Below the pieces are notes generated by a model that saw nothing but the letters and a program-made list of their open reading frames with translations, was not told the DNA's origin and searched no databases. Made by a program: the position numbers and the translations under genes. Source: Gammaproteobacteria bacterium (GTDB lineage Bacteria; Pseudomonadota; Gammaproteobacteria; Steroidobacterales; Steroidobacteraceae). From it: a DNA stretch of 50,908 nt. The stretch spans positions 1-50,908 of the forward strand of contig JAURLT010000033.1 in assembly GCA_030831085.1 (NCBI GenBank), written 5' to 3'. Within the stretch, counting starts at the first letter, position 1, and each line of letters begins with the position of its first letter. Positions 1,459 to 7,227 of this stretch are shown piece by piece.

Positions 1459-2849
1459 GTAGGCTGGTCGTTGTTTCCAATCGTGTTGATCTTCCCCCGG
1501 GAGACACCGCCCCCGGGGGTCTTGCCATCAGTCTGGCGGCCACGATTCGCCACACAAACAGCCTTTGGATTGGATGGAGCGGCCAGGTTGGAGCCTTGAG
1601 TGATGTGCCAAGAAGGCATAACCAGAACGGGATCGAGTACGCCGTAGTGGAACTGTCGATCGACGATTACCAACACTACTACCTTGGATTCTGCAATCGG
1701 GTGCTATGGCCATTGAGCCATGGACAACTCCCGGCTCCGGACGCTGAAGGAGGTGCCTGGTACCGCGCCTATCGGCGCGTGAATTTTCGAATGGCTAACC
1801 AGATCAAGGGATCTCTGAAGCATGACGATGTACTGTGGGTGCACGACTACCATCTGTTGCCGCTGGGGCATTTTTTAAGGCAAGCCGGATGTCGGAACCC
1901 CATCGGTCATTTTCTGCACGTGCCGTTTCCAGCACTTGCAGATGGACCGGTGAGCCGTGAACTGCTCGGGAATTTATTGGCCTACGATTTGCTGGGTTTC
2001 CAGACCCCGAACGACCTTGCGGCCTTTGAGGCAGTGGCGCGCCGCCATTGGGGGGAGCATGCAGTGACCCCTGCTGGCGTTGCCAATGGGCAGGGAGGCC
2101 TCACGGCCACCGGCGTTTTTCCACTCGGAGTCGACATCGATTATTTGCGCCGCACAGCCTCGGCGACGATGAGGGAGGCTGCGCTGCGCTGGTGGTCTGT
2201 GGGTCAGCCTGGCCAGCGCGTCATTGGCGCTGACCGTCTGGATATCAGCAAGGCCTTGCCACAGCGCCTGCGGGCCTACAGGCAGCTATTGACGAATTGG
2301 CCGGCCAGACCGCGGCCCAACTATCTGCAGTTCATAACACCGTCGCGGCTCGCTCTCGATGCTCACCGCGAACTGCAGGAATCGATCCGTCGGGAAGCTG
2401 ATTTATCCAATTCCTCCTCCGACTTGCGGTGCGTCTTTGCCGCCGTCCCCCATGACGAACTCATGGGAATTCTGGCGAGCGCCGACGTTGGTCTGGTTAC
2501 TCCCCGGGCGGATGGAATGAATCTGTTGGCCAAGGAATTTTTGGCCGTACAGCCGGAGGAAGATCCCGGTGTGCTGGTGCTCTCGCGGGGAGCGGGCGCT
2601 GCGGTCGAGTTGGAGGCGGCCATACTGGTCCCGGCAGACGACCAGAACAGCCAAGCCGAGGGGCTTCGCCTTGCGCTTGAGATGCCACTGACGGAGCGTC
2701 GCTCACGTCATCAGTCGCTGCTGCGCGCATTGCGTCGTAACGAACTGCCGCGCTGGCAACAGCGATTCGTGGGTCGATTGCTTCAGGCCCGGCGCCCTGG
2801 CCTGGCAATTCGGCCTGGAGGCGGTCTATGCGACGCGGACCTCGCCTGA
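1455..2849 (+). CDS. otsA: Alpha,alpha-trehalose-phosphate synthase (UDP-forming), GT20 family
   Basis: The ORF track gives 1386..2849. I chose the in-frame ATG at 1455 (MSRLVVVSNRV...), which matches the OtsA N-terminus and overlaps the otsB stop. The product is about 464 aa, with GT20-like blocks (WVHDYHLLPL, LLGFQT). Confidence 0.9.
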   Translation: MSRLVVVSNRVDLPPGDTAPGGLAISLAATIRHTNSLWIGWSGQVGALSDVPRRHNQNGIEYAVVELSIDDYQHYYLGFCNRVLWPLSHGQLPAPDAEGGAWYRAYRRVNFRMANQIKGSLKHDDVLWVHDYHLLPLGHFLRQAGCRNPIGHFLHVPFPALADGPVSRELLGNLLAYDLLGFQTPNDLAAFEAVARRHWGEHAVTPAGVANGQGGLTATGVFPLGVDIDYLRRTASATMREAALRWWSVGQPGQRVIGADRLDISKALPQRLRAYRQLLTNWPARPRPNYLQFITPSRLALDAHRELQESIRREADLSNSSSDLRCVFAAVPHDELMGILASADVGLVTPRADGMNLLAKEFLAVQPEEDPGVLVLSRGAGAAVELEAAILVPADDQNSQAEGLRLALEMPLTERRSRHQSLLRALRRNELPRWQQRFVGRLLQARRPGLAIRPGGGLCDADLA

Positions 2850-3863
2850 TCCGGCGCGAACTGCCCCAATCCTTTTAAAACCTGCGGCCTCTAGGGCTGC
2901 AACGCTCTCCCGGGGTACGGCCGCCAGCAGGCCGCCTGAGGTCTGTGGGTCCTGCAGCACCGCAAGCACCGCCGGATCGACCTCATTCATGCCCACCTTC
3001 AGGTATCGGTGAGCCGAGGTCCTTACTCCGGCAGCCGCCGCCTCCAAAGCGCCGGGCAAGACAGGCAACAGGCTCGTATCGACAACGAGGTCGACGCCTG
3101 ATTGACGCGCCATTTCGCCTGCATGCCCAAGCAATCCGTACCCGGTTATGTCGGTGACCGCATGGGGTTGATGCCCCTGCGATCGTAGCGCCTCCGCGGC
3201 TGCGCGGTTGGTCGCCCTCATCACGCGCAGGGCTGCCGGAAGATGCACTTCCGACCTGCTTGATAGCAAAAGGCCGGTGCCGAGCTGCTTTGACAACATC
3301 AGGACGTCGCCGTCCTGTGCGCCCGACTTTCGCCAGATCTTGCCTGGATGGAGGAAGCCGATCACGCAAAGACCGAATACCGGTTCTGCGCAACGAATCG
3401 AATGTCCGCCGAGGATGGCGCCCCCGCAGCTGGCGACCAAGGCAGCTGCGGCCCGGTTGACCTCAGCCACTACAGAATCTGGTACAACCGCGGGAAATCC
3501 GCAGACGGTCAATGCTAGTACGACCTCGCCGCCCATGGCATATATGTCACTGACCGCGTTGGCGGCTGCAATGGTCCCGTAGTCGTCCGGATCATCGACC
3601 AAGGGTGGAAAGAAATCGACGGTGGCGACCAACGCCCGATCGTCAGCCAGAGGATAGACGACCGCATCGTCCGCGGGATCAAGCCCCACCAGTTCCTGAA
3701 CGTTCGTCAGTCCAGTGGCGGCAACGGTCTCCACCAATCGTGACACCAAGTCGGGTGGAGCCTTCGCTGCGCAGCCGCCAGAACCACTCAGGGCGCGCAA
3801 CCGTATGGGCGCCTGGAGACCAGGCTTGTCAATCAGGGTCAACGGCTCAGTACCGCAACTCAC
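2826..3863 (-). CDS. selD: Selenophosphate synthetase (selenide, water dikinase), Cys-type
   Basis: 345 aa. SGGCAAK aligns to E. coli GAGCGCK (catalytic Cys17 and Lys20). DDAVVY and [32 protein letters not shown] align to DDAAVY and [32 protein letters not shown]. The fold is PurM-like. The ATGA at 3860-3863 overlaps the upstream ACAD gene. Confidence 0.8.
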   Translation of the reverse strand: [345 protein letters not shown]

Positions 3864-6507: not shown

Positions 6508-7033
6508 TACCTGACCTCAGCCAGCTACCGAGTAACTCGCGCGCGCCGAGTGGGACGCTCTCGGGGACTCTGCCGCTAGTCCGTATGGTCTGTCGGATTT
6601 CCGACGCCGATAAGCGGTTAGCCAAGTCCCCCTCCACAACCAGTGGCGGATATCCCGCCGCCTCAAAACGACGGACCTTTTCGCGTTCCCAAGCCGAGAA
6701 AACCCGGACGAGCTGTGGCGTGCCAGGCGGGATCAGCAATGGCCAACACTCGCAACGGTCGAGCGGAAACGGGAAAACCTGCCAACAGGACGCCGAAATA
6801 CCATCCTCAAACAAGGCGGCCTCGATCAATTGCTGGCGCTGCGATACCGATAGCGGATTCGACTCGTCAAGGTGGCGGTGACTGCTGGTCGGATGGTGCT
6901 CATGGTGGTCATCTTCCGGGTTGGTGATTCCAATCAACACTCGGGTGGCCCGTTGCAGCGCAAATCGCACCATCTCCAGGTGTTGGCTATGAAAGGGCTG
7001 AAACCGTCCGGTAAAAGCGACGAGCGGAAGCAT
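6485..7033 (-). CDS. Cytidylyl/adenylyltransferase-fold nucleotidyltransferase, NadM (archaeal NMN adenylyltransferase)-like
   Basis: The N-terminal VAFTGRFQPFHSQHLEMV fits the (H/T)xGH nucleotidyltransferase motif in an NadM-like context (GRMQPFHRGHL). SASEIR near the C-terminus resembles the NadM ISGTEVR block. 182 aa. Its ATG overlaps the stop of the upstream 64-aa ORF (TAATG at 7031-7035). Confidence 0.6.
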   Translation of the reverse strand: MLPLVAFTGRFQPFHSQHLEMVRFALQRATRVLIGITNPEDDHHEHHPTSSHRHLDESNPLSVSQRQQLIEAALFEDGISASCWQVFPFPLDRCECWPLLIPPGTPQLVRVFSAWEREKVRRFEAAGYPPLVVEGDLANRLSASEIRQTIRTSGRVPESVPLGARELLGSWLRSGIGVLHGR

Positions 7034-7227
7034 TACGGTTGGCGCTCGATCTCCCGGCCGTAAAATATCCGGAGACCGAGGACATCGCGATAAGGCCTGG
7101 GCGTCTCATATATGGTTTCGTCGATCAATGTCGTCCGACGGTAGACCGCCGGCTCTGCTGAAAGTGTTGGCATGGACGGAACGACAGTAAGCAAAATTGA
7201 GATGATTAATCGCCCATGCATGAGCAA
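7033..7227 (-). pseudogene. Truncated N-terminal fragment (64 aa) of a signal-peptide VOC-family protein, a paralog of the gene at 1-162
   Basis: MLMHGRLIISILLTVVPSMPTLSAEPAVYRRTTLIDETIYETPRPYRDVLGLRIFYGREIERQP* shares the AEPA(V/I)YRRTTLI...YRDVLGL core with the 1-162 gene (about 75-80% nt identity over about 100 nt). It stops after about one quarter of a VOC domain. Confidence 0.4.

Follow-up and report, generated by a model that had tools for sequence, protein, structure and literature searches.

A four-gene cassette built around selD in uncultured Gammaproteobacteria and Actinomycetota: a possible dedicated selenium pathway

To our knowledge, only a handful of enzymes are known to make carbon–selenium (C–Se) bonds, and orphan selD genes have been flagged by comparative genomics since 2008 without their partners having been found. 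A review from 2026 lists as selenium uses only selenocysteine (Sec), 2-selenouridine (SeU), the molybdenum (Mo) cofactor, selenoneine and ovoselenol. The sen/ovs clusters combine senC/selD with the selenosugar synthase gene senB and with senA or ovsA. Orphan SelD proteins, encoded without Sec, SeU or cofactor traits, were reported in 26 organisms by Peng et al. (2016, ISME J, PMC5029168), who also described an isochorismatase-like gene, with no function assigned, beside orphan selD in at least three phyla. In the preprint of Kayrouz et al., no acyl-CoA dehydrogenase (ACAD) appears in nine of the ten rows of families that most often overlap selD. Here we report a cassette of four genes, encoding an HxGH-class nucleotidyltransferase (NT), an ApgM-like phosphotransferase, an ACAD-fold flavoprotein and the selenophosphate synthetase SelD, in the window, that is, the whole analysed stretch of 50,908 nt (GenBank assembly GCA_030831085.1, contig JAURLT010000033.1, positions 1–50,908, forward strand) from a member of the Steroidobacteraceae (Gammaproteobacteria). 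We are highly confident that this cassette is a real functional unit, and consider it an evenly balanced proposition that it is a dedicated pathway installing selenium into a small metabolite or cofactor derived from a carboxylic acid or acyl-CoA, a selenium-utilisation trait not yet described.

Three further described systems bear on the partner enzymes. PhpG is an ApgM-family phosphonoformyl transferase whose partner, PhpF, is a CTP:phosphonoformate nucleotidyltransferase; in phosphinothricin tripeptide biosynthesis, a small phosphorus anion is activated by this pair as a nucleoside monophosphate (NMP) anhydride and the group is moved to phosphoglycerate. In ACAD10, ACAD11 and LvaC, whose hallmarks are a catalytic Asp, the HCMR motif and a partnering kinase, the ACAD fold handles 4-phosphoacyl-CoA by means of basic residues on the active-site helix. 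The third is 3-sulfinopropionyl-CoA desulfinase, which we take to be a base-less ACAD-fold enzyme that cleaves a carbon–chalcogen bond, with a family III CoA-transferase supplying the acyl-CoA.

Reading of the open reading frames (ORFs) of the window placed all four genes on the minus strand between positions 2826 and 7033, as the initial annotation had described. They encode the NT, which is distantly like nicotinamide mononucleotide adenylyltransferase (NMNAT; 6485–7033, 182 aa), the ApgM-like metalloenzyme-superfamily phosphotransferase (5158–6495), the ACAD-fold flavoprotein without a catalytic carboxylate (3860–5161, 433 aa) and SelD (2826–3863, 345 aa, GTG start). The motifs pointed out earlier, namely SGGCAAK and the ATP-site block in SelD, FQPFHSQH in the NT and ILDGLGDR...TPNLD in the ApgM-like protein, were all found. 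The four genes are chained by overlaps of 1–11 nt. The NT gene starts in a TAATG junction (7035–7031) and the ApgM-like and ACAD genes are joined by ATGA (5161–5158), both as previously read; the ACAD/SelD junction (3863–3860), which had likewise been given as ATGA, reads GTGA. The NT and ApgM-like genes do overlap, but the 23 nt claimed for this overlap (6485–6507) would need a TTG start at 6507, giving a protein of 449 aa. Because ApgM-like homologs begin with MxDDRLP, which fits the ATG at 6495, translation probably starts at this ATG, yielding 445 aa and an overlap of 11 nt.

The conservation of the cassette was examined in a genome scan covering one genome per species (185,579 species) with the ApgM-like family alignment as query. 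The scan yielded 61 loci, whose gene content was judged by tblastn with the four window proteins. The result showed that NT, ApgM-like, ACAD and SelD genes occur in the same order in 45 of the 61 loci. The 61 loci are distributed over Gammaproteobacteria (Steroidobacterales, Woeseiaceae) and Actinomycetota (Nanopelagicales and others). Eleven or 12 of the remaining loci end at contig ends, and the only ones without SelD despite enough downstream sequence are L047, L057 and L058, while SelD is probably missing as well from L046, where about 740 nt follow the ApgM gene; these SelD-less loci hold the most divergent ApgM-like proteins (43–53% identity). Homologs of the ApgM-like protein fell into more than 120 clusters (55–82% identity), almost all of them belonging to uncultured Gammaproteobacteria or Pseudomonadota; for three that lie on long contigs, the order NT, ApgM, ACAD and SelD recurred between unrelated flanks. 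In the reverse test, three of three SelD homologs taken from the SelD match list (53–59% identity) were also located inside the cassette, again with different flanks. Where genes had been called (six loci), neighbouring cassette genes overlap by 4–8 nt or are at most 31 nt apart, and in Actinomycetota one MmgE/PrpD-family gene is inserted between ACAD and SelD. The adjacency noted in the initial annotation is thus conserved across two phyla. The four genes make up a self-contained operon that is horizontally mobile; their identical order in two phyla implies that they are transferred together, SelD included.

SelD of the window scored 286 bits against the equivalog model TIGR00476 (cut-off 125) and contains the Pfam domains AIRS and AIRS_C; its scores lie under the cut-offs of two other SelD models (NF002098, 250 vs 299 bits; NF010705, 151 vs 291). 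Alignment to Escherichia coli SelD (PDB 3u0o, 1.4e-53) showed that Cys17 and Lys20 of the E. coli enzyme correspond to C31 and K34, and that the Asp/Asn blocks of the ATP-Mg site (DDA, TxDFF, AxNAxSD and TDxTGxGLxGH) are kept. The glycine-rich loop GGCAAK with the catalytic Cys31 and Lys34 (residues 29–34; positions 3762–3779, minus strand) aligns to G16-C17-G18-C19-K20 of E. coli, and GGCaaK is conserved to at least 75–95% among 39 cassette SelDs. These data agree with the initial annotation in indicating a genuine SelD with an intact active site, for which selenophosphate synthesis is predicted. A neighbour-joining (NJ) tree combined 150 database representatives with E. coli SelD and the 39 cassette SelDs; all of the latter fell on one side of the root. 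However, they group loosely, on very short internal branches, and SelDs from outside the cassette (rpiB-selD-rnhB context) are nested among them, so that the phylogeny is weak evidence and was rejected as proof of a dedicated lineage. For the same reasons, the cassette SelD is ordinary by sequence; it is its gene company that is unusual. One 90% cluster of actinobacterial cassette SelDs comprises 462 member sequences from public metagenomes.

Several observations were made on SelD relatives outside the cassette. The rpiB-selD-rnhB arrangement was seen at L067–L071 (P0445, P0448), whose SelDs are close to those of the cassette and have no selA or selU nearby, and P0559, in the same tree clade as these SelDs, no longer has the Cys and Lys of the active site (GGPGGTSAAW). 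Many SelD-like database representatives of about 310–330 aa align only from about query residue 55 on, with some 15–25 residues ahead of the aligned start compared with about 55 in the query; such proteins may be without the Cys/Lys glycine-rich loop and could have a different function.

None of the known SelD partner sets was found in the window, as had been claimed. The window ORFs include no selA, selB, selU, yqeB/yqeC, senA/senB or yedE/yedF-type family, and the window contains no tRNA and no Rfam family; the Sec trait (selA, selB, tRNA-Sec) is thus absent from these 50.9 kb, and no tRNA-Sec was detected in the 40 related loci scanned. Neither selU/ybbB nor yqeB/yqeC occurs among the window ORFs or the recurrent neighbour families, no SenB (TIGR04348) or EgtB/OvsA-type protein occurs in the window or the recurrent families of 65 loci, and no riboswitch or other Rfam family that might give a clue to the metabolite was present in the window or in 21 loci. 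The view that the operon matches no known selenium-utilisation system therefore stands: five uses are known, none with these partners, and literature searches found no description of an NT-ApgM-ACAD-SelD cassette.

The NT scored 33 bits against PF01467 (CTP_transf_like, threshold 21) and matched archaeal NMNAT structures at about 1e-7. The only NCBIfam models that matched it are those of NMNAT, cytidylyltransferase-related proteins and PPAT, with NMNAT best, but it stayed far below the NMNAT cut-offs (TIGR01527, 34.8 vs 181 bits; NF002243, 41.7 vs 127). Its nucleotide-binding HxxH signature GRFQPFHSQH (residues 9–18; 6980–7009, minus strand) aligns with GRMQPFHRGH of Methanothermobacter thermautotrophicus NMNAT, and across 44 cassette NTs the conservation of TGRFQPfH..H is at least 95%. 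The ISST-like motif SASEIR is also conserved, so that the protein has the motifs of the HxGH superfamily, and a family-specific insert reads SxHRHxxxxNP.

The ApgM-like protein contains the Pfam domains Metalloenzyme and PhosphMutase and lies below the cut-offs for ApgM (TIGR00306, 242 vs 320 bits; NF003104, 221 vs 489) and for PhpG (NF038358, 162 bits, 1.4e-47, vs 545). Its family profile matches the archaeal cofactor-independent phosphoglycerate mutase (iPGM) 2zkt at 5.7e-76, and the invariant motifs DGLGD, TSSE, TDEAGH and GDH align with this structure, the metal ligands and the Ser being kept. The motif TSSE (residues 63–66 in TTG numbering; 6310–6321, minus strand), which aligns with 'gSDtAH' of the archaeal iPGM, is invariant in sets of 23 and 46 family members, and its Ser is a putative phospho-serine nucleophile by analogy with bacterial iPGM. 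No phosphonate genes were found at any locus among the recurrent neighbour families. The initial annotation had left room for the partners being well-characterised housekeeping families, a glycolytic phosphoglycerate mutase (PGM) and a salvage NMNAT for example. This is not so: the NT, ApgM-like and ACAD proteins each score below every equivalog or housekeeping cut-off (242/320 bits for ApgM, 35–42/127–181 for NMNAT), indicating that they are not housekeeping enzymes.

The ACAD protein has all three domains of the ACAD fold (PF02771, PF02770 and PF00441) and reaches no NCBIfam equivalog cut-off. The motif RIPGG (residues 400–404; 3950–3964, minus strand), invariant in 34 family members, replaces the YEG catalytic-base motif; it aligns with 'eiYEGt' of butyryl-, short-chain and medium-chain ACADs, with G403 at the position of the Glu (E376 of medium-chain ACAD, MCAD). 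The alternative catalytic Glu, E261 of long-chain ACAD (LCAD) in 'QERL' (E254 in isovaleryl-CoA dehydrogenase, IVD), has its place taken by the invariant T273 (NYTRM). A catalytic Glu is thus absent from both the MCAD E376 and the LCAD E261/IVD E254 positions, and both replacements are invariant in the family. The helix-G motif NYTRMRRAGMCSGW (residues 271–284; 4310–4351, minus strand) carries a basic cluster and Cys281 in invariant alignment columns: the invariant RMRRAGMCSGW, which includes the GMCSGW cysteine (Cys281), adjoins T273 on the active-site helix. Blocks that align to the FAD-binding segments of solved ACADs are kept (VTExGAGSN, YITN, LQxHGG). The claim of an ACAD-fold flavoprotein therefore held, while the tailoring role proposed for it did not: because both known catalytic carboxylate positions are replaced, an ordinary substrate-tailoring dehydrogenase is unlikely.

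The ACAD is also the slowest-evolving of the four gene products. Its identity is 74–92% across two phyla and 74–80% between them, compared with between-phyla values of 42–48% for SelD, 46–50% for the ApgM-like protein and 33–44% for the NT; 223 of its 433 positions are near-invariant in 47 sequences, and its best 120 database matches are all 75–100% identical. Single-sequence AlphaFold prediction reached a pLDDT of only 36 and was not used. With an alignment-based model (pLDDT 68), the top Foldseek matches in the PDB were all ACADs (TM 0.67–0.72), generic ones only, and no specific ACAD subfamily emerged. The protein scored 139 bits against the 3-sulfinopropionyl-CoA desulfinase model NF042439 (cut-off 600), where an ordinary ACAD from L033 scored 293, and 97 bits against the desulfinase structure 5af7, no better than generic ACADs. 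Membership of the ACAD10/11 group was rejected on motifs (no Asp, no HCMR, no kinase) and because the N-terminal extension has no ACAD11 match; searched alone, this extension showed no independent similarity and no ACAD11 was found.

Clustering of all ORFs of the loci identified recurrent neighbours. Genes for an isochorismatase-family hydrolase (33 loci), an MmgE/PrpD-like protein (32 loci) and a family III CoA-transferase (20 loci) accompany the cassette in both phyla; Actinomycetota loci additionally carry an S-adenosylmethionine (SAM) methyltransferase, an MFS transporter and an ordinary ACAD, and a GntR/UTRA regulator occurs in several gammaproteobacterial loci. The best matches of the hydrolase are N-carbamoylsarcosine amidohydrolase and a putative isochorismatase (3ot4/3uao), the CoA-transferase resembles dicarboxylate CoA-transferases, and the closest solved relatives of the MmgE/PrpD-like protein are iminodisuccinate epimerase and cis-aconitate decarboxylase; its identification as PrpD itself was rejected (47 vs 950 bits). 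These relatives point to a small carboxylate or acyl-CoA substrate. Two further genes were each seen directly upstream of the NT gene at a single gammaproteobacterial locus, namely a TauE/SafE anion permease gene (L072, 2872–3687) and a gene for an APH-family kinase, the kinase family of LvaA and ACAD10/11 (L004, 6468–7445).

If the cassette is a dedicated selenium-installing pathway, SelD would first convert selenide and ATP into selenophosphate. The NT and the ApgM-like protein would then act, after the model of PhpF/PhpG, as a pair for nucleotide activation and phosphoryl transfer, a (seleno)phosphorylated intermediate being activated as an NMP conjugate and the (seleno)phosphoryl group subsequently moved via the conserved serine. 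The FAD-binding, base-less ACAD with its RMRR...C cluster would bind an anionic acyl-CoA and form the C–Se bond by a redox-neutral addition or elimination; ACAD10/11 and LvaC, with 4-phosphoacyl-CoA as substrate, and the desulfinase, with 3-sulfinopropionyl-CoA, would be precedents. The MmgE/PrpD-like protein, the isochorismatase-like hydrolase and the family III CoA-transferase, where present, would supply the carboxylate or acyl-CoA acceptor. We infer this division of labour by analogy only, and the roles of single enzymes are much less certain than the pathway as a whole. For the suggestion of the initial annotation that selenophosphate could be transferred to a nucleotide-activated intermediate, PhpF/PhpG offers one precedent. 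That the cassette constitutes a sixth SelD-dependent trait of freshwater Nanopelagicales and Steroidobacterales-like bacteria, in which the NT/phosphomutase pair processes selenophosphate and the base-less ACAD forms a C–Se bond on an acyl-CoA or carboxylate, is a tentative suggestion, less probable than a selenium-installing pathway in general.

A number of points weigh against a selenium-installing pathway. The Actinomycetota loci L046, L047 (4093–7323) and L064 carry an ACAD paralog, about 44% identical and likewise base-less (RIPAGT), together with NT and ApgM-like genes and no adjacent SelD, and L057 and L058 carry NT-ApgM or ApgM alone. Since such triads occur without SelD next to them, the chemistry of the triad may not need selenium, and the paralog triads may represent a selenium-independent sister system. 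The cassette SelDs form no sharply distinct lineage, with a small non-cassette group nested inside them in the NJ tree, and a canonical trait elsewhere in the carrier genome might be an additional, or even the sole, user of this SelD. In addition, none of the accessory genes was found in the window by tblastn, all 61 loci come from uncultured metagenome-assembled genomes (MAGs), and the suggested enzyme roles are modelled on families whose membership cut-offs the cassette proteins do not reach.

The missing catalytic carboxylate of the ACAD would also suit selenium salvage, in which the ACAD and a family III CoA-transferase would cleave the C–Se bond of an imported organoselenium carboxylate and SelD would capture the selenide for a canonical trait elsewhere. 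The CoA-transferase, MFS transporter and GntR regulator that recur nearby, the TauE permease gene of L072 and the match to the desulfinase (NF042439, 139 bits; 5af7, 97 bits) fit this scheme, although that match is no better than for generic ACADs and misses the cut-off widely, with the ordinary ACAD of L033 scoring higher. Moreover, salvage leaves the NT and ApgM-like genes without a function, although they are strictly co-conserved, and no selA, selU or tRNA-Sec lies near any cassette; we consider it unlikely. An equally unlikely explanation makes the ACAD the end user, SelD, the NT and the ApgM-like protein placing a selenium cofactor or a modified residue (Cys281 or a Ser) on it. Such maturation would accord with an ACAD far more conserved than its partners (74–80% vs 33–50% between phyla), with the invariant GMCSGW cysteine on the active-site helix and with the best NT matches being to NMNAT models, since HxGH transferases include cofactor-building enzymes; a labile selenium cofactor has a precedent in the Mo hydroxylases (2026 review). 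However, a selenium-modified ACAD has no known precedent, the accessory carboxylate and CoA enzymes suggest small-molecule flux, and ACAD-paralog triads exist without adjacent SelD.

Characterised SelDs strongly prefer selenide over sulfide, which counts against a pathway of sulfur or phosphorus in which the SelD homolog would use sulfide, giving thiophosphate, or another substrate. The wide margin over the TIGR00476 cut-off and the retention of every catalytic residue of E. coli SelD count against it as well. On the other side, triads occur without adjacent SelD, selenium is scarce in fresh water, two of the three equivalog cut-offs are missed (250 vs 299 and 151 vs 291 bits), and an archaeal SelD-like family has been proposed for sulfur metabolism (PMC4210487); taken together, we regard a non-selenium pathway as quite improbable, more so than salvage or maturation. 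The least probable explanation is chance or syntenic adjacency of a housekeeping selD with a glycolytic PGM, a NAD-salvage NMNAT and a beta-oxidation ACAD. Each partner does belong to a large housekeeping superfamily, and the neighbouring otsA/otsB genes show that there is some plain synteny at this locus. But two phyla keep the gene order amid unrelated flanks, the genes overlap at their start and stop codons, all three partners fall under housekeeping cut-offs and the ACAD is without a catalytic base; chance adjacency is effectively refuted by the genome scan and the reverse test.

Should the sixth-trait reading be true, it would imply a new class of C–Se bond-forming enzyme and a new selenometabolite or cofactor. 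Because the cassette provides a concrete, expressible gene set, it makes the orphan-SelD question directly testable: it consists of 4 to 7 genes, found in two phyla, that can be synthesised and expressed. A base-less yet highly conserved ACAD-fold protein is, in addition, of enzymological interest in itself. The carriers are mostly freshwater, uncultured bacteria. Freshwater Nanopelagicales are generally among the more abundant freshwater bacterioplankton, and a new selenium sink in them would matter for the selenium biogeochemistry of low-selenium waters.

On the downstream side of the cassette, a GT20 'OtsA' gene (1386–2849, plus strand) is convergent with selD, the 3' ends overlapping by 24 nt; its product scores 373 bits, under the OtsA equivalog cut-off of 565, and the adjacent phosphatase (700–1458, plus strand) passes the OtsB cut-off. 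As these genes are convergent, occur in a subset of gammaproteobacterial loci only and are absent from the actinobacterial cassettes, they were rejected as members of the system and treated as synteny. GT20 or trehalose-phosphatase genes were also seen beside an ApgM-like gene of an Acidimicrobiaceae MAG, on the same strand and after a methyltransferase gene (L058, 8093–9448), and beside a non-cassette SelD of the sister group (L067, 2621–3645); this adjacency may be a coincidence or a weak functional link. Records L005, L014, L031 and L052 carry implausible organism names among lake MAGs ('Klebsiella pneumoniae', 'Bifidobacterium breve', 'Bifidobacteriaceae'). In L014, 'Candidatus Planktophila lacus', both the cassette and the otsA/otsB synteny are of the gamma type, which points to mislabelling or mis-binning.

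On the other side, the window is syntenic at the nucleotide level with its closest relatives, L005 and L006 (about 72% identity), from otsB up to and including the NT gene; this synteny ends at about position 7050. The breakpoint thus sits at the NT start, and the region beyond it (7034–7665) holds the unconserved orf64 (64 aa; 7033–7227, minus strand), which lies outside the conserved unit, and a truncated short-chain dehydrogenase of which only the C-terminal half remains (profile positions 119–233 of 236). At the position of the breakpoint, L005 and L006 have an MmgE/PrpD-like gene preceding the NT gene. These data indicate that the PrpD-like gene of the window was lost at the breakpoint and that the region beyond the NT start is a rearrangement scar. 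The initial annotation had placed a 64-aa VOC fragment, a possible vestige or leader, at the head of the operon. This idea is rejected, because even at E ≤ 1 orf64 matches no Pfam family, none of 65 related loci carries a homolog of it, and it lies beyond the synteny breakpoint.

Further observations concern the rest of the window. A dense island at 18670–38699 encodes a penicillin amidase, four beta-lactamase-family (PF00144) proteins, a SIS-domain protein, a DUF1611 protein, an MR/MLE-family enzyme, an amidohydrolase, a TonB-dependent receptor and permeases of the sodium:solute and cytosine/purine types, and looks like a locus for uptake and recycling of peptides or cell-wall fragments. Within 20751–23102 (minus strand), two ORFs of 540 and 237 aa without Pfam matches lie downstream, on the same strand, of a gene for an SPFH/band-7 protein with triple zinc-ribbon repeats (23078–24328). 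At 40181–49890, two TPR-sulfotransferase fusions (41986–43503, minus strand; 47869–49890, plus strand) and a TPR-2OG-Fe(II) oxygenase fusion (40181–41980) flank a 932-aa TonB-dependent receptor.

Compared with the orphan SelDs of Peng et al., the cassette shares the isochorismatase-like gene, which is also its commonest accessory gene, and the association described by these authors may be a glimpse of the cassette; their paper (PMC5029168), however, names no NT, ApgM or ACAD partners, and no organism with an orphan SelD, including SCGC AAA015-D07, could be linked to the cassette through cluster-member names. The classic acI single-cell genomes in their table are without SelD, and a preprint on Actinomarina describes an ordinary Sec system, so that streamlined actinobacteria can carry the full Sec machinery. 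The desulfinase system resembles the cassette in its base-less ACAD fold and in the family III CoA-transferase of 20 cassette loci, and differs in that the model score is 139 against 600 and that the window itself has no CoA-transferase. With ACAD10, ACAD11 and LvaC, whose net reaction is redox-neutral, the flavoprotein has in common the ACAD fold with FAD, basic residues on the active-site helix and a full-length match that reaches over the N-terminal region. In contrast, the canonical carboxylate position, described for ACAD11 as Asp, is Gly here (RIPGG); the phosphate-binding HCMR motif of ACAD11 faces RMRRAGMC, a placement reached by counting from the Arg that every ACAD conserves rather than by aligning ACAD11; and no kinase domain or partner is present except the APH gene of L004. 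As in PhpF/PhpG, a nucleotidyltransferase is paired with an ApgM-family protein, although the latter is closer to true archaeal ApgM (242 bits) than to PhpG (162 bits) and neither an enolase nor phosphonate genes accompany it. Finally, no partner is common to the cassette and the sen/ovs clusters, the selD gene here being joined by an HxGH nucleotidyltransferase, an ApgM-like protein and a base-less ACAD, with a GT20 OtsA-like gene adjacent; but like them it is a compact, horizontally spread cassette in which a selD homolog overlaps its partner genes, and it may likewise make a small selenometabolite.

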